Positions 3,033 to 28,641 are shown, counted from the first letter of the stretch. The stretch is DNA of 28,641 nucleotides from Bdellovibrionota bacterium (GCA_041740355.1 JBGSMD010000019.1:1-28641), one strand, 5' to 3'. Program-made: numbers and translations. Notes: generated from the sequence alone by a model not told the origin.

Positions 3033-3256
3033 TTAGTCTATATTACTCAAATTTGGGTTAAATCATCTGCAAGGGTCATTTTGATTAAAACATTAAAGGT
3101 ATAAAAAGAAGTCAAAAGGGCTACTTTCTTAATAATTTCACAAAAATAAGCACAAATCTAATTTTTTTTGCATAACAATTGCACTAAGCTTAAAATAGTT
3201 CCCGTAAAGTAAGTTAAATATTAATAATTTGTAGTTTATAACCGATAATTAACTTG

Positions 3257-4120
3257 ATGAGATTTTTCCACCGACATTCAATTGTATCTTTGCCCAGTTC
3301 TGCTGTACCTCAACAGCCTAGCGACTCTCTTCCTTCTATTGAGACAACTGACTTGCCGACTAGAGTTCATACAAAAATTGAGAAACCAGTAACCTTAGGT
3401 TCAAGTGAAGGTCTTCCTGAAAAAGTTGCCCAAAGAGCAGGGGATCTTAAGAGCACAACAGCTACAGCCATAGTAGCCAATCAGCCATCTGCTGAGCCAT
3501 TAAACAGGGGAAGATCTGAATCACCACTTGAAATTAATATTATTTATAAATCGAAGTATAGTTTGTTATCAAACTTTGCTAGGACTCCCTTTCAGATGGA
3601 CACTGAGTCAACCTTTATTAAAATTGGCCATAAGGTCACCTTTGGTTCGATTGAGGCGTTTGTTCAAGCGATTAAATTTCCTTGTCCAGGGCAACTAGTA
3701 AGTACTGGTGTACAGACAGATCGAGAACACTTTATGAAAGAACTGGGGATGACTACGCTAGCTGAGTATTCTAAGTATTGGCACCAAATTGCAAGCCTTA
3801 GTGGAAACGAGGCGCGACATTACCGTAACGTATCTCAGGCTGTACGGGCTAACTCCGATGAACATGATAATAAGTATTTTTATTTCTTTAATCAAAGATT
3901 TGAGTACGCTTCAGATGTACGGTTGCCATTAATTGAAGAAGCCTTGAGGCAAAAGTTTTCGCAAAACAGGCTTGCTTGTAAGCAATTAATCGAAACAGGT
4001 AATGCTAAATTAAAACATGAACTGCCAACAATCAATTTACACCAAACAATCCTTTTGCCAGAAGAGTTTTCACGTCTTCTAGAGAATCTAAGAAACGAGT
4101 TTCTTGACCGGAAAAAATGA
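3257..4120 (+). CDS. NADAR-superfamily protein (T4 gp30.3-like) with a disordered Pro/Ser/Thr-rich N-terminal extension
   Basis: LSNFARTPF, FGSIEAFVQAIKF, KFSQN...LIETGNAKLKH, TILLPEEF..LLENLR. ATG at 3257 is preferred over TTG at 3254. Confidence 0.7.
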   Translation: MRFFHRHSIVSLPSSAVPQQPSDSLPSIETTDLPTRVHTKIEKPVTLGSSEGLPEKVAQRAGDLKSTTATAIVANQPSAEPLNRGRSESPLEINIIYKSKYSLLSNFARTPFQMDTESTFIKIGHKVTFGSIEAFVQAIKFPCPGQLVSTGVQTDREHFMKELGMTTLAEYSKYWHQIASLSGNEARHYRNVSQAVRANSDEHDNKYFYFFNQRFEYASDVRLPLIEEALRQKFSQNRLACKQLIETGNAKLKHELPTINLHQTILLPEEFSRLLENLRNEFLDRKK

Positions 4121-4648
4121 TTCCTTTAGATTTAGTTCAAACGGAATTGTTGTATCATGAAGACTATCCCAATTATCAATAATAATCCTAGATCGATCCT
4201 TAGTTACATGCCAATGGGCAGTTCCAGACATGCCATGCTCATTTACTAAGCCCGCATCAAATAAAATTTTAAAATCCTTCAATATATTCTGGCTAGCATC
4301 TTGGGTATATAATGTCGTTGGATTATTAAATGGGGCTAATTCTTTGATTGGAGTCCCCCAGTTTAATTCTATAACTGAATATCCAGAACTTGTATTCAGG
4401 ATTTTAATGTCAATTGGTGCCGAGGTAAGTTTTAGTTTTATAGCTATTAGATAGTTATCGGCAATTAGTTTTGCTTGTGCATCAGGGTAAGTAGCAAAAG
4501 TGCGAGATCCAACAAAATATCGGTAGGAAGCTCGTCCGTCGGCTAATTCTACTTCGGGTAGGGATTTTAAAATGCTTTGAATTTCAGATATTGAACTAGC
4601 ACGGCTTAGTTTTTCAATTGGGTCTGAATTTTGTATAAATAAACTCAT
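4088..4648 (-). CDS. Hypothetical protein, possible degenerate protein-kinase-like fold
   Basis: 186-aa ORF starting 9 bp after the stop of the upstream minus-strand gene. LFDAGLVNEH...RIIIDNW weakly echoes kinase LHxxGLVHxD...IIIDF. Confidence 0.55.
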   Translation of the reverse strand: MSLFIQNSDPIEKLSRASSISEIQSILKSLPEVELADGRASYRYFVGSRTFATYPDAQAKLIADNYLIAIKLKLTSAPIDIKILNTSSGYSVIELNWGTPIKELAPFNNPTTLYTQDASQNILKDFKILFDAGLVNEHGMSGTAHWHVTKDRSRIIIDNWDSLHDTTIPFELNLKESFFPVKKLVS

Positions 4649-4657
4649 AGTTATTCT

Positions 4658-6526
4658 CTAAGAAGCTTTCCCACATCGAGTGGTGTTTTTTACACCACAA
4701 TTATTTGTTAAACAAATAGAGAAAGGTTCTATTGCAGATATATTATTATTAGGTGCCATATAGGGCAAGATCGCGCAGGTTCCTATGTTGCCATAGCCTA
4801 AAGTGCCTGCCATAGTATATAAAATCATTTGTTCTTCACTACTGTAGTGTCTTAGACTCTTTGGGCCAAACTTACTGACAACCTCACAAGGACTAAAGTA
4901 GAAGTTAGGGTCAGTTGTTTCAATGAACGCAAAACCACGAAAATCAGGAGAAAAAGGTTCTTCATGGGGCATCAGGGCAATTGCTTTATCAGTTGTTGCT
5001 AGACAACAGATGGCTAATTGGCCTTTATAAAAGCTACGAATAGCTTTGTACTCATTATAGAGTGATGCGCCCGTCCCAGCAAAGTCATCAATTAATATTA
5101 ATTGAGAGTCAGGATGTTTTCCTCGGACGATATCTCGAGAAATATCTTTAAGTCGTTCTGGACCTTCCACAATTTTTGCATTTTCAATTCCAGCTGAACG
5201 AATATATAGGTTAATCATTAAATGGTAAGATTTTGCTTCGTTTGAATTCGGTACTGTTGGAAGATAAAAAACTATTTCGCGATCCTCTCTGATTTGAGAG
5301 AGGTTTTGTTCTAAACGCTTAAATGATTCGGCAATTTTCAAATTTGAAAAATAATTGATATTTCTGATTAAATAATCTCTAAGCAGATCGATCTCTTCTT
5401 TTGACCCGGGAATATTTAACATTAAGCTCGCAACTTGCTCAACATTAGTAATATGTTTTGGACCTGCTAGATTGCTGGCTAATTCGGCAACCGAATTGGT
5501 ATTTTCTCCAGTTGCGAGGATAATATTATCTCTGAGTTTGTCTGGGAGTTTTTGCAGAGTCGGTTGGGCAATTGTTTCCGCAACTAAAGTTTTAAGAGTA
5601 TGCGAATCGATCTCTTGGTTTGGATGATCTTTTGTTTTTTTTAAGACAGCTTCAATTAACTGAGAGATTTTTTGGGTGATCGTATCCTTGTCTAGTTTTT
5701 CCTTTCCAAATACTGAGATTCCATTCTCTAGTCCGACTGGCAAGATTAATTGAACTCGACGGGTAATAATTTCATTTTGCAAAGTAGGATCCGAGGCGAT
5801 TTTATCAATAGCAATTTGATCCAATATGATGCGTGAGTCAAACTCTAGTTTAGTAGTAAACTTCAAGGGAACGTTACTTGGTGATTTCTTTTGCAAATAT
5901 TTTAGAGATTCACAAATACTACCTTGTCCGACTCGATAGATTTTTGTGAAGTTAAGTTCGGGATGTGTCGCTAGCTGAAATAAGCTGTGAATGGAAGAGA
6001 AACTACTACCAATTGCTAGAATTTGTAGGGCAAGCTCTCGTTGGTTTTCGGGAAAGCTTTTGACGCTCTCTGCTAACATTTTTGAGCTAATAGTTTTGTC
6101 TTGGAGTTTTAAGGCATCATAAAGATTGTGATCATCTAATTTATATCTGGCAATTCCACGATGAGTAGTTTTTTTGATTACTTCAATTTGTTTTTCTTGA
6201 ACACTAGCGGAATTAAGAGATCCAATATTATGTGGACTCAGTAATGCTCGATCTAAATTAAAATCTAAACTAATTCGGGCGAGGATTTCAATCTCCACAG
6301 GAAGTAAGTCTTGTTTTACGGCTTTTTGTAAGACTCTTGTTAGAATTTTTCGATCTTGATTGCTGGTTCGACAAACCTCACTTGGTGTGAACGGCAAAAT
6401 ACCACTTTGATCTTTATAGATTTTTAATAATTCTAGAAATTTAATGTCCGGATCGGGGGTTGGCGGAAGGGTTGCCTGAGGTAAGGCACTAGCTTGCGGA
6501 GCATTTCTAGATTGTGGGTACGGCAT
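4658..6526 (-). CDS. Large protein with a C-terminal type I phosphoribosyltransferase-like domain (PRTase-CE-like)
   Basis: PRPP-loop LILIDDFAGTGASL, then LGYG...ILPYMAPNNN; Pro-rich N-terminus. Confidence 0.7.
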   Translation of the reverse strand: MPYPQSRNAPQASALPQATLPPTPDPDIKFLELLKIYKDQSGILPFTPSEVCRTSNQDRKILTRVLQKAVKQDLLPVEIEILARISLDFNLDRALLSPHNIGSLNSASVQEKQIEVIKKTTHRGIARYKLDDHNLYDALKLQDKTISSKMLAESVKSFPENQRELALQILAIGSSFSSIHSLFQLATHPELNFTKIYRVGQGSICESLKYLQKKSPSNVPLKFTTKLEFDSRIILDQIAIDKIASDPTLQNEIITRRVQLILPVGLENGISVFGKEKLDKDTITQKISQLIEAVLKKTKDHPNQEIDSHTLKTLVAETIAQPTLQKLPDKLRDNIILATGENTNSVAELASNLAGPKHITNVEQVASLMLNIPGSKEEIDLLRDYLIRNINYFSNLKIAESFKRLEQNLSQIREDREIVFYLPTVPNSNEAKSYHLMINLYIRSAGIENAKIVEGPERLKDISRDIVRGKHPDSQLILIDDFAGTGASLYNEYKAIRSFYKGQLAICCLATTDKAIALMPHEEPFSPDFRGFAFIETTDPNFYFSPCEVVSKFGPKSLRHYSSEEQMILYTMAGTLGYGNIGTCAILPYMAPNNNISAIEPFSICLTNNCGVKNTTRCGKAS

Positions 6527-18253: not shown

Positions 18254-18326
18254 TTTTTATCTATAGCTCTGAAGATAAAATTTGCTAATAATATTATCGA
18301 TATTAAAACTTTATTTAAATAATCTT

Positions 18327-19007
18327 ATGCTTAAAAAATTACTATTTATAATACTTATCTTAACTTTTATTGCGGATTCTGTAATAGCTCAGTCAGATTC
18401 ATTAAAAGTATGTATCAAAAACTCTGACGGTAAGATTGTTTTAAAAAAGAAATGTGGGGGCAAATTTACCTCAGCAACCTTATCCTCAATCAATCAAGCA
18501 AATAGCGATCTGATTTCTGCCTTACAAAATAGTAATAGTTCTTTGGAGGCTAATGATCAAGTGTTAGCAGATTCAATTGAGGGTCGTTTTGATTCAATAC
18601 CATCTGGAAAATCTGTATACGGATATGTAGGAATGGATACCGAGATTAGTAATATTGGTGGAGATTATCGAGCCTTCTTTAGCTTACCAGTTCCACCAAA
18701 TCATATAGTTAACGATGAAGATGTTTTGATCGCTAATATTTTTCCATCAACTACTTGCGAAGGTGTTAATTGTTTATCTACGGATGAGACAAGTTTTAAT
18801 TCAGTTTGCACGGGAACGATTGATAATCCTACGGCACCAGCAGGTAAAGTTTGTATTTACATTTCGTCATTGTCAGATAGTACAATTGAGGCAGAAAGTG
18901 TCATTGCCATTCCTTTTGAGAATGGACGGGGTTTAGCTATAGGTGCGCGTCCTGCCGCCACTGGGGATTTTTATTTACGCGGAAGTTGGGCTTATACAGC
19001 ACCTTAA
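18327..19007 (+). CDS. Secreted hypothetical protein with Cys pairs
   Basis: In-frame ATG at 18327 gives a classical signal peptide (MLKKLLFIILILTFIADSVIA-Q), then a short coiled coil and C-terminal CTGTIDNPTAPAGKVCIY...GSWAYTAP. Confidence 0.75.
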   Translation: MLKKLLFIILILTFIADSVIAQSDSLKVCIKNSDGKIVLKKKCGGKFTSATLSSINQANSDLISALQNSNSSLEANDQVLADSIEGRFDSIPSGKSVYGYVGMDTEISNIGGDYRAFFSLPVPPNHIVNDEDVLIANIFPSTTCEGVNCLSTDETSFNSVCTGTIDNPTAPAGKVCIYISSLSDSTIEAESVIAIPFENGRGLAIGARPAATGDFYLRGSWAYTAP

Positions 19008-19031
19008 TTTAAACAAATAATCGCCAAATTT

Positions 19032-19060
19032 TTGACATTTATCTCAAGATAATTTAAAAC
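19032..19060 (+). promoter_or_regulatory. Putative sigma70 promoter for tRNA-Leu
   Basis: TTGACA-17 bp-TAAAAC, about 40 bp upstream of the tRNA. Confidence 0.45.
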
Positions 19061-19099
19061 CTTCACCTGATCTTTGATTAATCAAAGGTTTCCAACTGT

Positions 19100-19183
19100 G
19101 CGATAGTGGTGGAACTGGTAGACACACAGGACTTAAAATCCTGTGAGGGTAACCTCGTGCGGGTTCGATTCCCGCCTCTCGCA
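19100..19183 (+). tRNA. tRNA-Leu(UAA), CCA not encoded
   Basis: D-arm GTGGAACTGGTAGACAC, anticodon arm CAGGA-CTTAAAA-TCCTG, long variable arm GAGG-GTAA-CCTC, T-arm GCGGG-TTCGATT-CCCGC, discriminator A. Confidence 0.97.
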
Positions 19184-19267
19184 TTTCCTTTTATCTTTTA
19201 AAATCGATAAGATACAGTCCTTTTTGAAAAGGACTTAGGTTTTGAAGATTCCCAAAAACAGATTCTT

Positions 19268-19430
19268 GGCACACTCTCGGCACAATTCAGCACAAAAAAT
19301 CACCATCAGGCACAATTAATAGCAAACTTTCAAAGTTAAAAATCGATAGTTATTACTAACTAAAAATGACAAAAGTGCACCTTTAGTGTGCCGAGAGTGT
19401 GCCCAGAATGCACCATGCAAAATGGCACAC
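19268..19430. repeat. GGCACA motif array with a perfect 17-bp inverted repeat (19268-19284 / 19387-19403); candidate integrase arm-type sites
   Basis: ggcacactctcggcaca ... tgtgccgagagtgtgcc, with additional (g)gcaca copies near 19290, 19309 and 19424. Confidence 0.7.
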
Positions 19431-19546
19431 TGATATTCTTAATATTATTAATAGGTTAAGCTTTGAATACTTGGGATTGAATCTCCTATTGAAACATTTT
19501 TAGTCATATTGTAGGCTAATTTTGTCTTAAATGGAGGATTAAATGC

Positions 19547-20644
19547 ATGGCTTCAATTACCAAACGAACAAGGTCAGATGGATCGATTGTTTATCGTGCT
19601 CAGGTAAGACTTAAAGGGCAGGAGCCACAGTCTTTAACTTTCGAAAGAAGAACTGATGCGGTTAAGTGGATTCAAAAGACTGAAACTGAATTAAGAGAAA
19701 ATAGATTTTTTGGAACTAAGGAAGGTAAGAGAAAAACTGTTAGTGAAGCTATTGAGCGTTACATTGAGGATCCAAACATAGTATCTCAAAAGAACTATGA
19801 AAATAAAAAAGCAATTCTTAGATGGTGGGGGAATGAAATCGGACATAGATTTATTGCTGATATTAGTCCTGCGCTAATTACCGAAAAAAGGGATCGTTTA
19901 GCCAAGGCTAAAAAGAAAATTAATAAACGCCTTCAAGCTAAGACAAAAGAGATTATTGAACCAGAAACCTTTAGTAAAGCTAGAGTTAACAGATACCTTG
20001 CAACCATATCTCATTTATTTACAATTGCTTTAAAGGAATGGGGTTGGATTGAATTTAATCCTGTTAAGAATGTTTCTAAACTTAAAGAACCTAGGGGAAG
20101 AGTAAGATATTTAACAGCTGATGAAAAAGTGCGACTTCTAAAAGCTTGTACAGAATCAGCCAGCCCATATTTAAGTCTGATTGTAAGAATTGCATTATCA
20201 ACAGGCATGAGGAAGGGTGAAATATTAGGCTTAACTTGGCAAGATGTTGACCTTATAACTGGAAGACTTCTAATTCGTGAATCTAAAAACGGGGAACAAA
20301 GATCAATTAGAATAATGCCCGATGTTCATAGCTTACTTTTGGAACATTCTAAGTTAAGAAATATTAACTCCAACTTTGTTTTTCCTTCTCAAGATCAGCA
20401 TAAGCCAGCTAGTATTAAAACAGCTTGGGAAAATGCTCTTAAGTCTGCAAAAATTGAAGATTTTAGATTTCACGATTTACGACACACGACAGCTTCATAT
20501 TTACTAATGAGTGGATCTTCCATTGCTGAGATCGCAGAAGTCCTAGGGCATAAGACTCTAGCTATGGTTAAGAGGTATAGTCACATGTCAGAGGGGCATG
20601 CTGATAATGCACTGATGCGAATGCATGAGAGGTTTTTGAGTTAA
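19547..20644 (+). CDS. Tyrosine recombinase / phage-type integrase
   Basis: Catalytic set STGMRKGE (R), SKNG (K), HDLRH, LGH, VKRY (Y); N-terminal arm-binding-like region. Confidence 0.96.
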   Translation: MASITKRTRSDGSIVYRAQVRLKGQEPQSLTFERRTDAVKWIQKTETELRENRFFGTKEGKRKTVSEAIERYIEDPNIVSQKNYENKKAILRWWGNEIGHRFIADISPALITEKRDRLAKAKKKINKRLQAKTKEIIEPETFSKARVNRYLATISHLFTIALKEWGWIEFNPVKNVSKLKEPRGRVRYLTADEKVRLLKACTESASPYLSLIVRIALSTGMRKGEILGLTWQDVDLITGRLLIRESKNGEQRSIRIMPDVHSLLLEHSKLRNINSNFVFPSQDQHKPASIKTAWENALKSAKIEDFRFHDLRHTTASYLLMSGSSIAEIAEVLGHKTLAMVKRYSHMSEGHADNALMRMHERFLS

Positions 20645-20916
20645 TTTATGGTTCTTTTATAGAATTTTAGATAATGTAGATTGTCAGATTAGTTGTCACT
20701 GGTAAGCAGTTGAAAAAAAGTGAGATTGGTACAACTAAGGTTAATAATTTACAAAATTATTTAGTCCTTTGTACTCCCTAAATTTTTATAAATTTTATCT
20801 TAAATTGGTAGTAAGAGATTTTGTTTCTTAAGTATTTACAAATTTCTAATAAATGAAGGTCTGCCCTGCGTGAATAGAGCCAGTTAAAATGATAGACTAT
20901 TTTAACTGGAGGACCT

Positions 20917-21180
20917 ATGAAAAAGCGATATACAGAAGAACAAATTGTAAAAATCCTACAAGAAGTGGAAGAAGGAAGCAGTGTTAGAGACACCTGCCGG
21001 AAGCATAATGTAGCCGAGCCAACCTTTTACCGCTGGCGCCAAGTCTACGGAGGGATGGAAGTGAGTGATGTTCGGGAATTAAAAAACCTGAAACTAGAAA
21101 ACGCCAGACTAAAAAGGATAGTAGCAGAACAAGCATTGGAAAATACGATTCTAAAAGATCTTAACTCAAAAAAGTGGTAA
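20917..21180 (+). CDS. IS3-family transposase OrfA (HTH + leucine zipper)
   Basis: MKKRYTEEQI...TFYRWRQVYGGME...LENARLKR...KKW. Confidence 0.95.
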   Translation: MKKRYTEEQIVKILQEVEEGSSVRDTCRKHNVAEPTFYRWRQVYGGMEVSDVRELKNLKLENARLKRIVAEQALENTILKDLNSKKW

Positions 21181-21202
21181 GCCTGCCTGAAAGAAAGCAG
21201 GC
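21168..21202 (+). promoter_or_regulatory. Programmed -1 ribosomal frameshift signal
   Basis: Slippery AAAAAAG (21168-21174), then 6 nt later a gcctgc...gcaggc hairpin; orfB is in the -1 frame. Confidence 0.85.
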
Positions 21203-22010
21203 GGCTAAATATGTTGTTAATAACTTTTCAGTATCGACTAGGTTTACTTGCAAGTTACTGAAGCTGAGAAGAAATACTTTTAGCTATAAATCAAATGTTG
21301 ATAAATCCGAAGTAATTAATCAGGTTTGTGAATTATCTTATAAATATCCTCGCTGGGGATATCGTAAGATAACTGAACGCTTAAAGATTTTAGGAGTTAA
21401 AGTTTGCAACGAAACTGTTCGTTCCATTAGAAAACAATCTGGCTTACAAGTTAAGCGAAAACAGCATAGGAGAAGGGTTTCAAGAAGCAAGCCAACGCTG
21501 AGACAAGCAGAGTATGTTAATCATGTCTGGAGTTGGGACTTTATGTTTGATGCTACGTTTAATGGCAGAAAGCTCAAAGTCTTAAACATCATAGATGAAT
21601 ACAGTAAGGAACTTTTAGTTAGCTATGTTGCTAGGAATATTACTGCAAGGGATCTGTATAAAGTTTTGCAAAAGTTATTTGCAGAACGTGGATATCCAAC
21701 TCATATCAGATCAGACAACGGATCTGAATTTGTGGCTAAACATATTCAAGAACAACTTACTAAGGCAAAAGTAAATATTATTTACATTCAGCCAGGCAGT
21801 CCTTGGCAGAATCCGTTCATTGAATCTTTTAATTCAATACTAAGGGATAATATTTTAAATCGATATTTGTTTCTGACACCAAAGGAAGCACAATCGATAA
21901 TTAATAATTTCAAGACAGAGTATAATACTGAGCGTCCGCATGGAACACTTGGTGGGATTACTCCACAAATGTTTGTGGAGAAGTGCCTACAGAAAAAACT
22001 TTGTGCTTGA
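21174..22010 (+). CDS. IS3-family transposase OrfB (DDE/rve)
   Basis: PRWGYRK, WSWDF (D), SDNGSEF (D), IESFN (E), YNTERPH. Confidence 0.96.
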   Translation: MVSLPERKQAAKYVVNNFSVSTRFTCKLLKLRRNTFSYKSNVDKSEVINQVCELSYKYPRWGYRKITERLKILGVKVCNETVRSIRKQSGLQVKRKQHRRRVSRSKPTLRQAEYVNHVWSWDFMFDATFNGRKLKVLNIIDEYSKELLVSYVARNITARDLYKVLQKLFAERGYPTHIRSDNGSEFVAKHIQEQLTKAKVNIIYIQPGSPWQNPFIESFNSILRDNILNRYLFLTPKEAQSIINNFKTEYNTERPHGTLGGITPQMFVEKCLQKKLCA

Positions 22011-22083
22011 ATATGGAGAAAAACTATGACAATCTATCTTTAACACTGGCTCTAAAATGCGCGGCTACGCCATGAGTTTTAAC

Positions 22084-22100: not shown

Positions 22101-22163
22101 TTGACTCTCTATGGCTATTAATGGATAAGAGCACCATTGATTTATGTTATATGTTGTTAAATT

Positions 22164-22724
22164 ATGTTATGTCATAAAAGTCCCACTCCTGATAGTAGTC
22201 AGCCAAAAGAGGGAAGTGAGTTAACTGAAGCATCCCTTCCTAGTAAAAAAAATCTTTTTAGATCTATTGCCCTAGCAGGGGGGTTAGCGATAGCACCTCA
22301 TACGCTTTGTATTCTTGGGGTAACTGGCGTTCTAAGTAGTGTCGTGGGTTATAAGATTTGTAGCGATCATAGTTCTACGGACTTTGATATTCCTCTAAAG
22401 AAATTACCAAAATTACCAGAGGATTTTAATGAGTTTCCAACGGCTAAATCTGAATTGGTTGGTAAGCTTTTGTTGCAAGTTGAGCCAAAGTTTCAAGATG
22501 TCATTGATTTTAAACAAGCAGAGTCAAAAGATGAACCAATAAAAATTGTATTTTTAGAGGACAAAATAGATGGAAAAGTTTCTGTTGTCTTTTGTAAAAA
22601 TGGGGGATTATGTCCATGTTCAAAGCCAGAATTATACGAAATAGGATTTAAGGATCGACGCTCAGAAACAGAAAGTTTTAAAGGTCAGAATAAAATTCTT
22701 AGTGAATTATATAAAGTCAATTAA
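22164..22724 (+). CDS. Hypothetical membrane-anchored Cys/His-containing protein
   Basis: Hydrophobic segment containing PHTLC, then ICSDH and FCKNGGLCPC. Confidence 0.7.
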   Translation: MLCHKSPTPDSSQPKEGSELTEASLPSKKNLFRSIALAGGLAIAPHTLCILGVTGVLSSVVGYKICSDHSSTDFDIPLKKLPKLPEDFNEFPTAKSELVGKLLLQVEPKFQDVIDFKQAESKDEPIKIVFLEDKIDGKVSVVFCKNGGLCPCSKPELYEIGFKDRRSETESFKGQNKILSELYKVN

Positions 22725-22754
22725 AATAGATTATTTAAATTAAATAGAGGTCTT

Positions 22755-23405
22755 ATGTGCATTTTTCATGAAGCGTTATCTGTTGATACAGAGCAAGGAT
22801 TCTATATTGCGCCAGTTGTTGTAGCTTTAAGCGGCCTACAAAAAGGTTCAACTTTATTTAATGAATTATCACAAGTGGAGCGGATCTTATCCTCAAATGA
22901 AATCGGGGCTGGGGCAAATTTATTATTACAAGTGGCAAAAGATCCATATCGATACTTAGGTAAGATCCTTTCCTTTGAAGCGGAACGTGGTAATGGAGAT
23001 CAAGCCGTAAATGCAATATTAGAAGAGTTGGCCAGATCGGATGATAGACAAAGATTTTTTGATGCTGTTGCACCATCTGAGCGAACACTTAAAATTGCTA
23101 AAGCTGAATCTGTTGATGTTGCATTAGCTGAAGTCGCAATTGCTGGACATTCAAGTCGCCCTGCATTTTTAGAATGGTTTCGAGAGAATCCTTCAGGTTT
23201 AGAAGCACCTAAAGCAATTCAAGTTTTAGATCGAGTATCTCAAGACGTTTTAGTCGCCTTGTCAAAGAAAATTGAAGTTATTAGTTGTTGCCCAGAGATA
23301 TCTCCAGGAAGATCTGGACTAACTGGCTCGTTTGCTATTCCTAAGATTCCAACTTTACCAATTCCTGTTAAGGGGGATCCAAAGCCAGGATGCTGTCATC
23401 CTTAA
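22755..23405 (+). CDS. Hypothetical protein with CC motifs
   Basis: AGAGG RBS; starts MCIFH; SCCPE and C-terminal PGCCHP. Confidence 0.75.
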   Translation: MCIFHEALSVDTEQGFYIAPVVVALSGLQKGSTLFNELSQVERILSSNEIGAGANLLLQVAKDPYRYLGKILSFEAERGNGDQAVNAILEELARSDDRQRFFDAVAPSERTLKIAKAESVDVALAEVAIAGHSSRPAFLEWFRENPSGLEAPKAIQVLDRVSQDVLVALSKKIEVISCCPEISPGRSGLTGSFAIPKIPTLPIPVKGDPKPGCCHP

Positions 23406-23417
23406 GCAGATAAGTTA

Positions 23418-24935
23418 ATGATGATCAAGCAAGATATAACCAGTGAAACAGGTGACTGTTGTGGAGTCTGTGGATGTAAAGATGCTGTTAAAGTAACTGC
23501 TCGAATACATAAGGATATTGAAAAGTTTTTATCTGATCCGGAGAGAATCTTTTCATTGGTAGATGCTTATGGTTCACCTCTAAATATACTTTTCCCAGAT
23601 TTAGTTTTAGAAAATCTATCTTCCTTTCGAAAGGTTTTATTAGAGAATAGAATAAATGGAGAAATCTTATTTACAACTAAAGCTAATCGATCAAATGCAA
23701 TTCTTGATTTACTTGCAAATAATGTTGTAACAGTTGATGTCTCTTCTCTCGGCTCTTTAAATTCAGCACTTGTTGCTGGTATTCCTGGAAGTAGGATACA
23801 AGTCTCTGGCCCAAAAAATATAGATTACTTAGGCAAGTCCTTACTTCATGGTTGTACAATTAGTATAGATAGTATTGAAGAGTTTGAGTTGTTACTTAAT
23901 TTAAGGGAATCCATACCAGATCTAGTTCCTACTCCAATATTATTTCGTCTGGCTGGATTCAATCAAAGTCAAAAACGAATAAATCGTAAAATTGAAGTTT
24001 TTGGAATTAATCTAGAATCTATTCCTGATTTATTACAAAAGTTAGTTTCCCTACAAGATAGTTTCATTTTTAAAGGTTTTTCTTTTCATATTAGTAATCC
24101 ATCTTTAAATGAAAGATTACAGGCAATTGAGAAGACTTTGAGAGTTTTTATGCAAGCTCGAAATATGGGTTTAGCTCCAACATCAATTAATATTGGTGGC
24201 GGATTTAGAATATCCTATGCGGAAAATCAAGAAGAGTGGAATCGATTTGAGACCTATCTTAAGTCATCTTTAATGGGTGATACTAAACCAGTGACTTGGA
24301 ATGGAACTGGACTTGGATATCAATTGTCAGAGAAGGGAATTGTTGGCTCTCCTTCATATCTTAATCATTATTTAGAAATTTCTGGAGCGAAGGAATTACA
24401 ATATTTACTAAATTGTCCGCTTCCAAATTTTGACAATTCAACTGTTGGAGAAATATTTAGCGATGCTTTGATTAAGTTAGAAGTTGAGCCTGGTAAAGCA
24501 ATTCTTGACCAAGCTGGAGTCACTCTTGCTCGAGTTACCTTTTGTAAGCAAACACCAAATAAAGAGTTGGTAGTTGGTTTAGAAATGAATAATTCAAATC
24601 TTTGTAGCAATGAGCAAAAGCTATTAACCCAGCCATTATTTTTCCCTCTTCAGCAGAGAACATTAGATCCACGAGGGATGTTTTTAGTTGGTAATCTCTG
24701 TATTCCAAATGATGTAATTCAGTATCAAAAAGTATATCCTGGATTTTATCCAAGTATTGGTGACTTGGTATTATTTATTAATACTGGTGCATACTTAATG
24801 GATTTTGTTGAATCTGCTATGTTACATCAACCGATAGCAAGGAAAGTTGCTGTCACAGAATTAAACAATAAATGGATTGCGGTTCTTGACGATGAGTATT
24901 CTGCAATACGCAATCAATTATCTAAAATAAAATGA
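23418..24935 (+). CDS. Y4yA-like fold-type III PLP-dependent enzyme (diaminopimelate/ornithine decarboxylase superfamily)
   Basis: YGSPLNIL, TKANRS (PLP Lys), DVSS, SGPK, FH, NIGGG, EPGKAILDQAG, GNLC, NTGAYLMDF. Confidence 0.85.
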   Translation: MMIKQDITSETGDCCGVCGCKDAVKVTARIHKDIEKFLSDPERIFSLVDAYGSPLNILFPDLVLENLSSFRKVLLENRINGEILFTTKANRSNAILDLLANNVVTVDVSSLGSLNSALVAGIPGSRIQVSGPKNIDYLGKSLLHGCTISIDSIEEFELLLNLRESIPDLVPTPILFRLAGFNQSQKRINRKIEVFGINLESIPDLLQKLVSLQDSFIFKGFSFHISNPSLNERLQAIEKTLRVFMQARNMGLAPTSINIGGGFRISYAENQEEWNRFETYLKSSLMGDTKPVTWNGTGLGYQLSEKGIVGSPSYLNHYLEISGAKELQYLLNCPLPNFDNSTVGEIFSDALIKLEVEPGKAILDQAGVTLARVTFCKQTPNKELVVGLEMNNSNLCSNEQKLLTQPLFFPLQQRTLDPRGMFLVGNLCIPNDVIQYQKVYPGFYPSIGDLVLFINTGAYLMDFVESAMLHQPIARKVAVTELNNKWIAVLDDEYSAIRNQLSKIK

Positions 24936-26260
24936 TTATTGAGAAGATTACTGATTTAATTGGAAATACTCCGCTTTTTCGTATTCCAGATGAAGTACAT
25001 GGATTAAAGAATGTTAATCTTTTTGCGAAGCTAGAAATGTGTAATCCCTTTGGATCTGTTAAAGATCGGATTGCATGGAAATTGCTTGAAGAGCAAATAC
25101 CAGAACTTGTTTCAAATCAAAAAGGTTTAATAGAAAACTCTAGTGGTAATACGGCTAAGGCCATTGCTGCGATTGCTGGCATGCACAAACTCCCATTTAA
25201 ACTTGTAAGTGCTCTAGTACGAGTTCAAGAAACTAAAGATATTCTTAAGCTATTGGGAGTTGAATTAGAGGAAGTTGCTGGTTCTCTTAATTGTTTTGAT
25301 CCAAAGGATCCTAATGACCCCCAATATCTAATTCAAAAACAAGTCATAGAGGCAAAGGGAAAATTGTACTTTACTTCTCAGTTTACTAATGCTCAGAATC
25401 CTGAAGTGCATTATGAAACTACAGGAGCTGAAATTGCTAAAGATTTAAAGAAAGTTGATTTTTTATGTTCTGGACTAGGAACTTCGGGATCGACATTAGG
25501 AATTGCCAGAAGATTGCGAGAAGATAATCCTGACTTATTCTGTCTTGGTATTACTGCGAGTAAAAATGATTTTATTCCTGGCATTCGAACTATTGATCAG
25601 ATTTGGGAAGCAGGATTTTTTAGTAAGAGTGAGTACAGTGATTTTTGCACAGTAGAGTCTCGAGAAGCACTTTCCGGAATGATGACGTTGGTTCGTAATT
25701 GTGGATTATTATGTGGACCGTCTTCAGGTGCACATTATACTGCTACAGTTAATTATCTTCGAGAAAAATCTATAAATTTTAATGAGCCAAAAAATGTGGT
25801 TTTTATTGTCTGCGATCGTATTGAATGGTATCTTTCTTATATCAAAGAGCGAATGCCTGAGTTATTCGCAGAAAAAGTTAATAAAAATTCAATCTTCACT
25901 CTATTCCCTGAAGAAATAAATTCAGCTCCTCAATTATCTGTGGAACAAGTGGAACAGTTCTTAGAGGATTCTAATCCCTTGATTGTTGATATCAGAAATT
26001 CATTTGCTTTCCAGTTAGGAACAATTTATGGAGCAATTAATATTCCAATTGAATATCTAGAAAAATTACTGGATCTTAAAAGTCCGTTCTCTGGGTACGA
26101 TCGAGATGTCATTTTTATTTGTCCGATAGGAGAACAATCAAAAAGATGTGCTGCTCAACTTACAAGAATGGGAGGAAGAGGGTATAGTTTATTAGGTGGA
26201 TTACAAAATTGGAGAACAGCTGGTAAACCAATCTCAACTCAGCAAGAGCAGTATTTTTAG
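24932..26260 (+). CDS. PLP-dependent cysteine-synthase-family enzyme fused to a C-terminal rhodanese domain
   Basis: IGNTPL, KLEMCNPFGSVKDR, SSGNT, GLGTSGS, GPSSGA; rhodanese IVDIR...GAINIP...ICPIGEQS...LLGGLQNW; ATGA overlap with the previous gene. Confidence 0.9.
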   Translation: MIIEKITDLIGNTPLFRIPDEVHGLKNVNLFAKLEMCNPFGSVKDRIAWKLLEEQIPELVSNQKGLIENSSGNTAKAIAAIAGMHKLPFKLVSALVRVQETKDILKLLGVELEEVAGSLNCFDPKDPNDPQYLIQKQVIEAKGKLYFTSQFTNAQNPEVHYETTGAEIAKDLKKVDFLCSGLGTSGSTLGIARRLREDNPDLFCLGITASKNDFIPGIRTIDQIWEAGFFSKSEYSDFCTVESREALSGMMTLVRNCGLLCGPSSGAHYTATVNYLREKSINFNEPKNVVFIVCDRIEWYLSYIKERMPELFAEKVNKNSIFTLFPEEINSAPQLSVEQVEQFLEDSNPLIVDIRNSFAFQLGTIYGAINIPIEYLEKLLDLKSPFSGYDRDVIFICPIGEQSKRCAAQLTRMGGRGYSLLGGLQNWRTAGKPISTQQEQYF

Positions 26261-26341: not shown

Positions 26342-28641
26342 TTAAAATGTTTTACGTAATGATTCCCTGAGTTGAGACTTTAATTCTATGATTAACTCCT
26401 CTAGTTCTTCAGGAGTAAGTTGTTCTAAGGTTGTGCCATTGCCTTTACTAGCCAACAGTACTTCCATTAGGTATTTCTCTTCGAGTGTTAGATTTTCAAG
26501 CTTACCTTTGAATTTCTTTAGTCCTTGCATTAGCATCATAAAACATAATAATTCTTCAATTGATAAGTCTGGAAGTTGATTGGCAAATAATTTCCTAAAA
26601 TCAATTGTGCTTAAATCCTCAAGTTTGGAATTAAGTAGTCCATTAAGCGCTTGATCTAAATTTGGAATAATCTCACTAAGATCGAATTCTTTACCATCAT
26701 TAAGTAATTTAATTATGCCACTTAGTTGTAAGGTTTCAACTTCGCTGGACTGAATAACATCAATTAAGTTTACAAGTAACATTCGGGCATCTTCTGGATT
26801 CTGAATCAAAAGCAATTTCAGCTCTTCTGGTAAAGCAATATCATCTTCCACTCCAAACTCGATAGCTTGGTTTATTAGTGCAATTAAATCAATTAACTCT
26901 TGATTGACTTCAATCTCTGGAATAAACAATTCTGGGTGCAATTCTTCTAATTTTAAGTTATTAGTTATTTCCACGGTAATTTCATCAACTAATTTAGTTT
27001 GTTCATCTTCGGAAATAATATTATTTGTATTGCTTAATACATTATCAATTTTATCTTCTGGTGATGCTAAATGGGTTTCTGATTCCTGAGTCAGCTCTAA
27101 CTCAGGATCGAATGACTCAAGAGGGGAGGCCACTTGAAGGTCTAGTAATTCTAGTTCTTTGTCTAGTCCTGTGTCACTTTCTTTAGCGACCACTAAACTT
27201 TCCGCAACTTCCGTCAACTCGTCTTCTGTTACTAATATTTCTTCTGTTACTTCAGGTTCAGCTACTGTTTTTAATTCTTGGCCCAACTCATTATCAGGTG
27301 AAGTTTCAAGTAATTCTTCAGGAAGTGCTTCATTAGCCAGCATTACTTCTAACTCTGGATCAACTTCTTGAGCTGACTGTTGTAGTTCTAATTTAACATC
27401 CTCTGTATCTGGTAGGTCTTCAGCACTTACAACTTCTAGATCTTTTTCAACTCCTGCAATCAATTCTGGATTGATTAGTTCTACACCTTCTTGTGATAAT
27501 AGTATTTCTTCAGTTATCTCAGGATTAATTAGTACTTGGTTTTCTAAATTGGAATCAATTGGATAGTCTAGATTTATTTCTAAAGGTAGCTCTGGTGAAA
27601 GAGCAAAAATTGGATCTTTAGCAAGTTCAAGATTACTATTTTCTAAATTATCCTTAGTGATTGTTTCTTCTTTTGGATCAATCACCTGATCGGGATTAAT
27701 TTCCGAACTTAGAAGATCTTTAAGATTTGTATCTTTTGGATTAATAGCATCTTCGATCACTATATCTTGATTATTTGGGCTGAAGGGAAGATTTTTTTCC
27801 AGAAACTCAGGCTGACTAATGTTAGGATCCTCAATTTCCTTTTTTAAATATGTTTTTAAGTTTTCATTTAGATCGGTCACAAGATTTGATTCTACAGATT
27901 GTAAAATAGGATCAACATGTTCTGCTTGTTCCAACTTAGAATTTACTACAGTTGTTGGATTTTCATTATCAATAAGTAAGTTTGCATTAAGCTCTGTCTC
28001 AATTTTGTCTCTTAAAGGTTTTTCATCTTTTTTGTCATTTAAAAGTAGCTCTTCTCTAATCTTTATCTCAACATCAAAATCATCTGGTTCAGAAGCAATT
28101 GCTTTAGTTAACTCATTTAAAGTTTGATTATCTAGAATAGGAATATCTAAGTTTTCATAGTGTTTGTGATCTACATCAACAACTGGTGCTAACATGAAAT
28201 CAACCGCCTCCGCATTTGGCTGAATCCTATTCTCTATTTTATCTAAATCAGCAGTAGGTTTTACAAAGTGTCCACAGTTCTCATCGTGAGTATGAGTAAG
28301 TTCAGCAACTGGTGCTGACATGAAATCAACCGCCTCAGAATTATCTTGAACTCCAACCGACATTTTGTCTAAACCAGCAGTAGGTTTTGCTATGTGTCCA
28401 CAGTTATCATCGTGAGTATGAGTAAGTTCAGCAACTGGTGCTGACATGAAATCTACCGATTCAGCATTAGGCTGAATCCTGCTCTCCATTTTGTCTAGAT
28501 CAGCAGTAGGTTTGGCTAAGTGTCCACAGTTCTCATCGTGAGTATGAGGAAGCTCCGCAACTGGTGCTGACATAAAATCAACCACCTCAGAATTAGCTTG
28601 AACTCCAACAGACATTTTGTCTAATCCAGCAGTAGGTTTGG
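26342..28641 (-). CDS. Very acidic low-complexity protein with tandem 42-aa His/Cys repeats; 5' end lies outside the window
   Basis: The frame stays open upstream of the tracked ATG at 28615 (KPTAGLDK-M), so that Met is internal to the repeat. Body is E/D/N/L/P-rich. Confidence 0.85.
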   Translation of the reverse strand, partial: KPTAGLDKMSVGVQANSEVVDFMSAPVAELPHTHDENCGHLAKPTADLDKMESRIQPNAESVDFMSAPVAELTHTHDDNCGHIAKPTAGLDKMSVGVQDNSEAVDFMSAPVAELTHTHDENCGHFVKPTADLDKIENRIQPNAEAVDFMLAPVVDVDHKHYENLDIPILDNQTLNELTKAIASEPDDFDVEIKIREELLLNDKKDEKPLRDKIETELNANLLIDNENPTTVVNSKLEQAEHVDPILQSVESNLVTDLNENLKTYLKKEIEDPNISQPEFLEKNLPFSPNNQDIVIEDAINPKDTNLKDLLSSEINPDQVIDPKEETITKDNLENSNLELAKDPIFALSPELPLEINLDYPIDSNLENQVLINPEITEEILLSQEGVELINPELIAGVEKDLEVVSAEDLPDTEDVKLELQQSAQEVDPELEVMLANEALPEELLETSPDNELGQELKTVAEPEVTEEILVTEDELTEVAESLVVAKESDTGLDKELELLDLQVASPLESFDPELELTQESETHLASPEDKIDNVLSNTNNIISEDEQTKLVDEITVEITNNLKLEELHPELFIPEIEVNQELIDLIALINQAIEFGVEDDIALPEELKLLLIQNPEDARMLLVNLIDVIQSSEVETLQLSGIIKLLNDGKEFDLSEIIPNLDQALNGLLNSKLEDLSTIDFRKLFANQLPDLSIEELLCFMMLMQGLKKFKGKLENLTLEEKYLMEVLLASKGNGTTLEQLTPEELEELIIELKSQLRESLRKTF
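28160..28641 (-). repeat. 126-bp coding tandem repeat (three full units plus partial units at each side), alternating A/B variants
   Basis: Units 28615-28490, 28489-28364, 28363-28238 encode VDFMSAPVAELxHTHD[ED]NCGHxxKPTAxLDK. Confidence 0.95.

Follow-up and report, generated by a model that had tools for sequence, protein, structure and literature searches.

A conserved decarboxylase and CysM-rhodanese pair in a Bdellovibrionota bacterium: candidate enzymes of a zinc-linked small-molecule pathway

Metal-regulated pathways that build a metallophore with a CysK-like enzyme and a fold-III decarboxylase are already known, SbnA and SbnH being the example. Aspergillomarasmine A (AMA) synthase forms C-N bonds, and its product is a zinc-chelating aminopolycarboxylate; the gene cluster for [S,S]-ethylenediaminedisuccinic acid ([S,S]-EDDS) holds CysK-like and diaminopimelate-decarboxylase-like genes; in the CysM/CysO system of Mycobacterium tuberculosis, a CysM-type enzyme takes its sulfur from a protein carrier and not from free sulfide. 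Among metallochaperones, HypB of Escherichia coli carries a CxxCGC site and HypA an M-H-E site. Here we analyse four genes, named orfA, orfB, DEC and CYS, at positions 22,164 to 26,260 of a 28,641-nucleotide (nt) stretch of DNA from a Bdellovibrionota bacterium (GCA_041740355.1, JBGSMD010000019.1). This whole stretch, to which all coordinates refer unless a locus is named, is called the window below; it is the complete contig C19 of a 3.27-Mb genome that is 97.27% complete.

Few bacterial zincophores are known (PMC10563805, in the part of the text available). Comparison of the four genes with their relatives leads us to regard a small-molecule pathway linked to zinc homeostasis, whatever its chemistry, as the probable setting of DEC and CYS, with considerable room for doubt.

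The four genes and their relatives

Calling of open reading frames (ORFs) gives four genes in one direction with spacers of 30 and 12 nt and then a 4-nt overlap, the same arrangement (gaps of 30, 12 and -4 bp) that the original prediction, made from this DNA alone, had described:

22164..22724, plus strand: orfA, 186 amino acids (aa), an ORF of no known family
22755..23405, plus strand: orfB, 216 aa, an ORF of no known family or fold
23418..24935, plus strand: DEC, 505 aa, a fold-III enzyme dependent on pyridoxal phosphate (PLP), of ornithine/diaminopimelate decarboxylase type (PF02784, E 5.7e-19)
24932..26260, plus strand: CYS, 442 aa, a fusion of a CysM-like enzyme with a rhodanese, overlapping DEC by 4 nt

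The enzymes DEC and CYS are conserved as a pair and translated together. Among species-representative genomes 385 relatives of DEC were found, the best 80 of which gave 79 loci; with four loci fetched earlier and the window's tail these make up the 84 sources in which ORFs were called and proteins clustered, a list of the loci most similar to a Bdellovibrionota query and not an unbiased census. The counts exclude two DEC ORFs shorter than 400 aa and locus L060, which holds no member of the DEC or CYS clusters; in the high-GC Actinoplanes loci L095, L096 and L098 the DEC ORFs were merged or missing in the ORF calls. For 79 of the 81 DEC genes of at least 400 aa (78 loci), CYS lies directly downstream on the same strand, and 40 of those genes share the 4-nt overlap of the window. 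The carriers are labelled Bdellovibrionota, Micavibrio, Melainabacteria/Obscuribacterales, Patescibacteria, Chloroflexota, Actinomycetota and others. Within the order of the window's genome the full-length CYS fusion occurs in 8 of 40 other genomes, at 40-60% identity, and is not found in a genome of the same genus; the DEC family as a whole comprises 305 representative clusters at E <= 1e-30 in an exhaustive search.

The neighbourhood of both enzymes, which the original prediction had named as a means of judging it, combines this conserved pair with partner genes of metal type. A CooC-like P-loop ATPase of about 325 aa lies near 51 of the 81 DEC genes, a class-V aminotransferase resembling cysteine desulfurases (SufS/IscS type) near 40, and a regulator of the Fur family near 26 (28 loci). 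The best solved relative of the ATPase is the nickel-insertion factor CooC (3kje), and its Cys-x-His motif is invariant: C134 and H136 are kept in 51 of 51 sequences, H148 in 47. Other neighbours are COG0523 GTPases, ZrgA, DUF3299, a MacB-type ATP-binding-cassette (ABC) system, a P1B-ATPase with YHS/HMBD domains, efflux genes of the resistance-nodulation-division (RND)/CusB type and a BT1/major-facilitator (MFS) transporter, together with a methyltransferase of NNMT/TEMT type, a flavin amine oxidase and a distant cystathionine-gamma-synthase-like protein; TauE, MerC and SulP neighbours are each confined to single loci. At several loci there are also tailoring genes resembling asparagine synthase and acyltransferases, plus exporters. 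The methyltransferase, amine oxidase and exporters of some loci fit a small amine as product.

CYS is made up of a PALP domain (aa 6-295, about nt 24947-25816; E 4e-47) and a Rhodanese domain (aa 336-429, about nt 25937-26218; E 3.8e-13), the latter scoring 50.2 bits on PF00581 against a gathering threshold of 22.2. The active-site motif of the rhodanese, CPIGEQS, occupies aa 397-403; its cysteine, to which the original prediction had drawn attention, is Cys397, and it is kept in 79 of 79 full-length fusions, in which G400, D353 and R355 are invariant as well. Across the same fusions K44, S70-S71-G72-N73, C121 and C294 are invariant too, and P216-G217 and R219 are so or nearly so. CYS retains K44 as its PLP lysine, an S-S-G-N-T loop and the CysM-type IPGIR loop, which in the alignment stands opposite the IPGIR of E. 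coli CysM (2bhs). On the cysteine synthase models TIGR01136, TIGR01138 and TIGR01139 it reaches 168.5, 155.5 and 140 bits against cut-offs of 344-394, and on the SbnA model TIGR03945 145.4 bits against 349.95; a separate 307-aa CysK-like gene of housekeeping type lies on contig C9.

Beside these residues, the invariant Cys121 stands in a family-specific insertion, C-x-D-P-x-D-x-x-D-P (aa 121-130, nt 25292-25321), which the alignments do not show in CysK and CysM. It may be a second site of sulfur relay or a metal site.

The predicted model of CYS has a mean predicted local distance difference test score (pLDDT) of 85.6. The only solved structures aligned over both of its domains are two of AMA synthase: 8h4q_A, with Z 37.3 over 426 residues (model residues 1-439), and 8h4h_A, with Z 37.2 over 422 residues, at 22% identity; AMA synthase also holds ranks 1-4 in Foldseek (E about 5e-28 to 9e-27). 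The titles of the entries 8h4h and 8h4q name AMA synthase and a complex with O-phosphoserine. All other fold matches have Z of 36.2 or lower, are tied within about 2 units and cover the PLP domain only, to about residue 315. By sequence, CYS aligns with AMA synthase over residues 13-375 only, and its C-terminal 126 residues alone do not find AMA synthase.

DEC is strongly diverged. Its Pfam match is to PF02784, the N-terminal PLP barrel, only; PF00278 is not reported, and C-terminal stretches align with lysA, BtrK and the aspartate kinase/diaminopimelate decarboxylase (DapDC) fusion. The lysA model TIGR01048 gives 101.3 bits against a curated cut-off of 297.9, and 370 bits for the true LysA of this genome, on contig C63. 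Ordinary LysA and CysK/CysM, the outcome that would have spoken against the original prediction, do not describe the two enzymes, which score far under the curated cut-offs. The best solved relative of DEC is LysA 2yxx (E 1.4e-12) and the second-best is 6knh, which we take to be SbnH. K88, H224, G260-G262, E357-P358-G359, C428 and Y459 are kept in all 19 aligned relatives and presumably form the PLP-binding and catalytic set of the decarboxylase fold. The original prediction had classed DEC as a Y4yA-type enzyme; no NCBIfam model of that name matched DEC, and one relative (P0046, 28% identity) bears the name 'Y4yA family PLP-dependent enzyme' in its source annotation. At its N-terminus DEC bears the tag CCGVCGC (aa 14-20), of which all 18 aligned members of its subclade, metagenomic ones included, keep C14, C15, C18, G19 and C20.

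The two genes before DEC match no Pfam or NCBIfam family, even at E 5. Hydropathy gives orfA one hydrophobic stretch (aa 35-66), which bears P-H-x-x-C, followed by a soluble part with C-x5-C-P-C; from this profile it is probably anchored in the membrane. Its motifs are PHTLC (aa 45-49) and CKNGGLCPC (aa 144-152), and in the five aligned sequences P45, H46, C49, C66, H69, C144, C150 and C152 are all invariant, giving also C-x-x-H (C66-H69) and C-K-x-G-x-L-C-P-C; the N-terminal C3-H4 occurs in only two of the five. In orfB, M1, C2, H5, L92 and C213 are invariant across a 17-sequence alignment, and all 17 sequences have CC within the last two to five residues, the terminus here being GCCHP; an internal CC (aa 178-179) sits in an insertion specific to the window and is not conserved. 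Taken to be cytoplasmic, orfB is all-helical in its AlphaFold model (pLDDT 85.3; predicted template-modelling score, pTM, 0.77), with helices over aa 3-177 and a disordered tail that bears the CC (pLDDT below 50). Searches of solved folds gave no match for it (Foldseek best E 0.44; VIA-align best Z 4.7, for a 46-residue helical hairpin), and a search of the ESM Atlas, with a best score of 0.82, gave no lead.

Both families are rare: orfB has 9 other clusters in 5.8 billion proteins, and one further orfA cluster was found in a large protein database. An orfB-like gene is present in 10 loci, each time directly upstream of DEC, and orfA-like genes are directly upstream of orfB in four (the window, L012, L020 and L021), so these two orphans, which the original prediction had tied to the enzymes, are indeed linked to them elsewhere. 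The clustered Cys motifs that it had listed are all present in the translations and, since most of them are kept in relatives, most are more than chance; the exception is the internal CC of orfB. The ligand sets of orfA and orfB, together with the likeness of the DEC tag to the CxxCGC of HypB, point to metal binding, and orfA, orfB and the tag may bind metal.

In Micavibrio-type loci there is a separate-looking family, without Pfam assignment, that starts M-C-[KRN]-[FW]-H in 16 of 19 ORFs, has a CxMC motif and in its long forms has membrane segments and His-rich tails (L051:618-1808, with a run of eleven His, L041:5649-6686 and L035:5694-6845); its genes sit between a leader ORF, described below, and the ATPase gene. 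A start of the form [MVL]-C-x-x-H is found in 19 of 1449 called ORFs, 18 of which belong to this family and to orfB. Because a profile comparison of the two aligns the first 29 columns only (probability 13.8%, E 0.002), we claim a shared motif and not homology.

A CCxxCxC tag is found on 11 DEC proteins. In a quick IQ-TREE phylogeny of 81 DEC proteins, the 12 members with the tag or orfB form one clade, supported by 99 in the Shimodaira-Hasegawa-like approximate likelihood ratio test (SH-aLRT), within which the window's DEC is sister to L020/L021 (SH-aLRT 96; 49% identity). The ATPase and desulfurase-like genes are near none of these 12 genes and, since the clade is nested among loci of the ATPase/desulfurase type, the four-gene form is a derived variant: on present sequence comparisons, Cys/His-bearing proteins appear where ATPase and desulfurase were lost, in a subclade of Bdellovibrionota. 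Genes for COG0523 or Fur stand beside this variant in L020, L022, L026 and L027, and several of its loci carry a RegB/RegA-like two-component pair and a small membrane protein starting M-C-P-x-C.

A second, deep-branching DEC and CYS lineage was also seen, in which DEC is 26-27% and CYS about 40% identical to its counterpart in the window, accompanied by a cystathionine-gamma-synthase-like gene (L027:15103-16545 and 16605 onward; L014:9560-11017 and 11093 onward; L018:7845-10681). In L014 and L027 it is divergent from COG0523 across a spacer of 59-75 nt that holds a delta-type Zur box (see below), and two of the genomes with this lineage also have a DEC of the tag/orfB type.

Metal regulation and alternative readings

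Operators were sought in 73 intergenic regions that precede core genes in 57 loci, with shuffled sequences as background. The delta-type palindrome TGCAACTnAGTTGCA / TGCAACNNNGTTGCA, at up to three mismatches, is present in 12 of the 73 regions (11 loci), against 0.55 in shuffles; it is identical to the box ATGCAACNNNGTTGCAT predicted before znuABC-zur operons of Desulfovibrio by Rodionov et al. (PMC545781, in the available part of the article). Its carriers are Bdellovibrionota, Patescibacteria and gammaproteobacterial metagenome-assembled genomes, and several of the boxes fall within the short gap that separates the DEC operon from COG0523 genes transcribed the other way. The alpha-type box TGTTATNNNATAACA, at up to two mismatches, is present in 8 of the 73 regions (7 Micavibrio-type loci), against 0.95 in shuffles, and matches the Zur boxes of Caulobacter as given in the accessible text of PMC4176598. 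COG0523 chaperones and zinc-independent paralogues of enzymes are common in Zur regulons (PMC6103462, likewise for the text at hand). Two unrelated types of box (18 loci), together with COG0523 and ZrgA neighbours, make zinc-starvation control by Zur the best-supported regulatory reading of the homologous operons, as predicted from their upstream regions.

Within this frame, in which the pair would be part of the Zur regulon in most lineages, a mechanism can be proposed whose product would be either exported as a zincophore or kept in the cell to buffer zinc. In it, the CysM-like domain of CYS would form a PLP-bound aminoacrylate from O-phospho- or O-acetylserine and add a nucleophile at its beta carbon, the favoured one being the sulfane sulfur of a persulfide on Cys397 of the rhodanese; the loading of this sulfur would fall, in most lineages, to the cysteine-desulfurase-like enzyme encoded nearby. 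The resulting thiol, persulfide or thioether amino acid (cysteine, thiocysteine or lanthionine) would then lose one alpha-carboxyl through DEC, giving a ligand with an amine beside a thiol or thioether, as in cysteamine or thialysine. The CooC-like ATPase, with its invariant Cys-x-His, would handle the metal in most lineages, and in the Bdellovibrionota subclade the membrane protein orfA, orfB and the CCxxCGC tag of DEC would take that role by binding or sensing it. The substrates, the sulfur transfer, the product, metal binding by the tag and the regulation of the window's copy are all inferred parts of this scheme. The order proposed in the original prediction, beta-substitution and then decarboxylation, fits the conserved gene order and the structural match to AMA synthase. 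A sulfur nucleophile is slightly favoured because of the invariant Cys397, the desulfurase-like partner in half of the loci and the CysM-type loop, and a sulfane-sulfur route to a small metal-binding molecule linked to zinc is accordingly put forward as a possibility, still short of an even chance. Its fullest statement, which is doubtful, makes DEC and CYS the core of a phylum-spanning, Zur-controlled pathway to a sulfur zincophore or zinc-buffering amino-thiol with a metal-handling protein relay; the relay would consist, in most lineages, of the CooC-like ATPase and M-C-x-x-H proteins, and here of the helical orfB, the membrane protein orfA and the DEC tag. Genomes labelled Bdellovibrionota, Micavibrio, Melainabacteria and Patescibacteria, all names of groups in which some members are predators or episymbionts, would often carry this pathway.

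Several results weigh against this sulfur pathway. Both types of Zur box were recognised by computation, and only 35 of 78 loci have any Fur, COG0523, DUF3299 or FtsX neighbour in the fetched DNA. The metal link of the original prediction gained Zur boxes, COG0523, ZrgA and metallochaperone-like partners in relatives, and no metal-responsive operator was found at the window's own locus: there is no Fur-family gene, COG0523 gene or transporter there, TGCAACNNNGTTGCA has 9 matches against 10.7 expected and none before orfA, and TTGCAA-N5-TTGCAA has 5 against 3.3. A match to TGTTATNNNATAACA with one mismatch lies over the start of orfA (22165-22179), at genome background (16 matches against 15 for a control pattern). 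In the window's own genome TGCAACNNNGTTGCA has 6 matches against 1 for the control, the best site being near pilin-type genes and not zinc genes. A comparable operator does exist elsewhere in this genome and not at the window, namely the palindromes before the COG0523 gene on contig C3 described in the next paragraph. One query found no homologue of the CooC-like ATPase in the genome, and no sulfur donor enzyme is linked to the window's genes. Moreover, AMA synthase shares the two-domain build of CYS and forms C-N bonds, so that the fusion need not mean sulfur transfer. Copper is also conceivable as the metal, given the CruR-like leaders of Micavibrio-type loci and the P1B-ATPase and CusB-type genes near DEC in relatives.

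Further observations concern these control regions. On contig C3 (L113:423-461, 509-2421) three overlapping perfect copies of TTGCAA-N5-TTGCAA stand upstream of the genome's only COG0523 gene and are probably the genome's own operator of Zur or Nur type; the gene after COG0523 encodes a NicO/DsbD_2-like membrane protein with a C-S-C-C motif. Within the window, TTATGTTAT occurs twice in 22142-22170, 20 nt apart; the second of these runs into the start codon of orfA and gives the alpha-type match. In 14 Micavibrio-type loci (for example L036:267-683 and L059:5157-5528), a DUF2946/CruR-like leader ORF with an export signal heads the operon. It scores 25.4 bits on DUF2946 (PF11162; cut-off 23.7) and has a RAPP-like xPP motif two to five residues from its end, with 46-49 residues from the last Cys to PP in 13 of the 14. 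This layout agrees with that of CruR, a copper-sensing leader peptide with CXXC and RAPP motifs (PMC9426467, for the portion of the paper available), in which the Cys motif stands about 45 residues ahead of the C-terminal RAPP arrest motif; the Micavibrio leaders keep only one Cys of the CXXC pair and may sense another metal than copper. The product of orfA is not recognised as such a leader: PF11162 does not match it at E 5, and an xPP motif is lacking near the end of the protein.

Nearly as likely as sulfur is a nitrogen nucleophile, in the manner of AMA synthase or SbnA, leading to an N-(2-aminoethyl)-amino acid of EDDS/AMA type. In the form we consider, which is again rather doubtful when taken whole, CYS would join the amine of Asp or Glu to the aminoacrylate derived from O-phosphoserine, DEC would decarboxylate the diaminopropionate-like end in an SbnH-like way, the product would be an aminocarboxylate zincophore of AMA/EDDS type, and the rhodanese would be structural or regulatory. 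That AMA synthase is the sole solved protein aligned over both CYS domains speaks for it, as do SbnA, close to CYS in fold (Z 35.6) and matched in sequence, and 6knh, second among the solved relatives of DEC; the Zur boxes count equally for both chemistries, and production of [S,S]-EDDS is Zur-controlled according to the available text of PMC9252823. Against it, a rhodanese Cys that is invariant in 79 of 79 fusions and a desulfurase-like gene beside 40 of 81 pairs are hard to explain without sulfur transfer; CYS reaches 145 on the SbnA model against a cut-off of 350, the identity to AMA synthase is only 22%, and the genome has no SbnB-type or NRPS-independent siderophore (NIS) synthetase gene. 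It is unlikely that no chelator is made at all and that the pair instead serves sulfur and cysteine metabolism as a branch that spares zinc or depends on a metal (for example cysteine from thiosulfate or protein persulfide, feeding Cys-rich metal proteins), or is a metallo-cofactor assembly line (for example the CooC-like ATPase putting metal into DEC or CYS, with Cys tags as its substitute here). Such a role agrees with the zinc-independent paralogues and COG0523 proteins commonly held in Zur regulons (PMC6103462, available text) and with the CysM-type loop of CYS; CooC-type ATPases are metal-insertion factors, the present one is CooC-like with an invariant Cys-x-His, and its mutual exclusion with the DEC tag suggests that DEC is its target or working partner. 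For the supply of cysteine, though, a decarboxylase would not be needed, and the tailoring genes and exporters of several loci look like small-molecule biosynthesis; nor do we know of any zinc-dependent enzyme that a CysM-like and DapDC-like pair could replace.

Two further explanations carry much less weight. Cyanide defence of predators, which we hold to be very unlikely, would have the rhodanese make thiocyanate, the CysK-like domain act as beta-cyanoalanine synthase and DEC decarboxylate beta-cyanoalanine. Both domain families of CYS include known cyanide detoxifiers, the fold of soybean beta-cyanoalanine synthase matches strongly (Z 35.1), and many carriers are labelled as predatory or episymbiotic groups (Bdellovibrionota, Micavibrio, Melainabacteria, Patescibacteria); some loci have the RegB/RegA-like pair, and RoxSR, which is homologous to RegB/RegA, responds to cyanide. 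This account leaves unexplained the Zur boxes, COG0523, ZrgA, the CooC-like ATPase and the Cys/His-tagged proteins; fold scores within the CysK family are all tied within about 2 Z units, and no nitrilase or other cyanide gene is among the annotated neighbours. Least probable of all is a siderophore module of the staphyloferrin B kind (SbnA/SbnH), or spare copies of LysA and CysK/CysM: the family-level likeness to the lysA, cysK/cysM and SbnA models and the structural matches to SbnA and 6knh are set against equivalog cut-offs that are every time missed by a wide margin and against a true LysA on C63 and a CysK-like gene on C9. The absence of NIS synthetases, which the original prediction had noted for the window, extends to the whole 97.27%-complete genome, where neither IucA/IucC (PF04183) nor the SbnB/ornithine cyclodeaminase family (PF02423) has a match in a search that was positive in control genomes; neither family is among the annotated neighbours in the 84 sources. 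The bacterial coenzyme M pathway (XcbD/XcbE) was considered separately and rejected, the enzyme families being different in the part of the source available (PMC9457059).

The island that carries the cluster

Upstream of the four genes, the window holds the dcw cell-wall gene cluster and aspS, followed by three elements:

19099..19184, plus strand: tRNA-Leu (anticodon taa), found by ARAGORN
19547..20644, plus strand: tyrosine recombinase of the phage-integrase family (PF00589, E 4e-34), adjoining the tRNA
20875..22054, plus strand: insertion sequence of the IS3 family, with HTH_Tnp_1 and rve domains

The IS3 element has two ORFs (20917-21180 and 21174-22010) and terminal inverted repeats at 20875-20896 and 22033-22054 that are 82% complementary; it ends 110 nt before orfA and may have cut off or replaced the native upstream region. 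In a genome of the same genus, aspS (protein 93% identical) is followed by the same tRNA-Leu and then by the same integrase, at 91.8% DNA identity over 19029-20644; from 20645 onwards the window has no match in that genome, whose cargo at the matching position is an AbiE toxin-antitoxin pair and an IS91 fragment. Since the two genomes share tRNA and integrase and differ in cargo, the four genes are the cargo of a variable island at tRNA-Leu, as the mobile island of the original prediction had it, and the tRNA-Leu is likely to be its attachment site.

Other features of the window were noted. Between aspS and the tRNA-Leu lies a 241-aa ORF (18282-19007) with no Pfam match, which is not in the same-genus genome, where aspS almost abuts the tRNA-Leu. 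A 23-nt inverted repeat (19262-19284 and 19387-19409, 96% complementary, 102 nt apart) between tRNA-Leu and integrase may serve the island in recombination or regulation. On the minus strand, convergent with CYS, a very acidic ORF of at least 765 aa (26342-28639) runs off the contig end; its N-terminal part contains 126-nt tandem repeats, each unit with H-T-H-D-E-N-C-G-H, possibly a His/Cys metal site. Neither Pfam nor NCBIfam recognises this ORF, and none of the other DEC loci holds a homologue. Upstream of the dcw cluster (454-1041 and 3254-6526) there are a toxin-antitoxin pair of BrnT/CopG type, an ORF with weak matches to NADAR and phage GP30.3, and a 622-aa minus-strand protein with a PRTase-CE domain, a gene set that may be of defence type.

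Relation to known systems

A literature search, with most subscription journals outside it, found no description of a CysM-rhodanese fusion together with this decarboxylase family, nor of CooC-like or desulfurase-like partners, M-C-x-x-H proteins or a Zur link, and these enzymes do not appear in a paper on COG0523 (PMC2770081). DEC and CYS offer a candidate new route to a zincophore, compact, widespread and testable with two to four genes, and the analysis gives a context to several unannotated genes: the DEC family, the CysM-rhodanese fusion, the CooC-like ATPase with Cys-x-His and the M-C-x-x-H proteins. The carriers include Patescibacteria with very small genomes, in which zinc handling is little understood. 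Moreover, the natural swap of ATPase and desulfurase for Cys-tagged proteins may help to show what the accessory proteins do.

The nearest comparisons differ in what they share with the locus. With CooC, HypB and HypA the likeness lies in the ATPase of the wider system, which is CooC-like with an invariant Cys-x-His, and in short motifs, the DEC tag CCxxCGC resembling the CxxCGC of HypB and the M-C-x-x-H-E of orfB the M-H-E of HypA; orfA and orfB have no homology to these families, and no hydrogenase, urease or CO dehydrogenase is found in DEC neighbourhoods. M. tuberculosis CysM resembles CYS in the CysM-type IPGIR loop, and its structures match CYS at Z 35.1; the carrier here would be the persulfide of a fused rhodanese and not a ThiS-like thiocarboxylate, the product would pass to a decarboxylase, and the setting is metal homeostasis.

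Among chelators, the opine zincophores use nicotianamine-synthase-like and opine-dehydrogenase enzymes, none of which is among the annotated neighbours here. To our knowledge, no rhodanese fusion, CooC-like ATPase or Cys-tagged helper occurs in EDDS or opine zincophore clusters. What DEC/CYS would share with [S,S]-EDDS of Amycolatopsis japonicum and staphylopine/pseudopaline is chelator synthesis under Zur (PMC9252823, PMC6103462, PMC10563805, in their available text). SbnA and SbnH differ from the present pair in regulatory context, which is iron for them and zinc for the relatives of DEC and CYS, in the absence here of an SbnB or NIS partner, and in the rhodanese with an invariant Cys that CYS possesses; they resemble it in joining a CysK-like beta-replacement enzyme to a fold-III PLP decarboxylase, and in a metal-regulated metallophore pathway, which for the present pair is a proposal. 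AMA synthase (8H4H/8H4Q) is fungal and not bacterial, is 22% identical to CYS, forms C-N bonds and is not known to need a decarboxylase, desulfurase or ATPase partner. It is like CYS in having a CysK-type PLP domain followed by a rhodanese-like domain, and its zinc-chelating product fits the zinc context in which the relatives of DEC and CYS are found.

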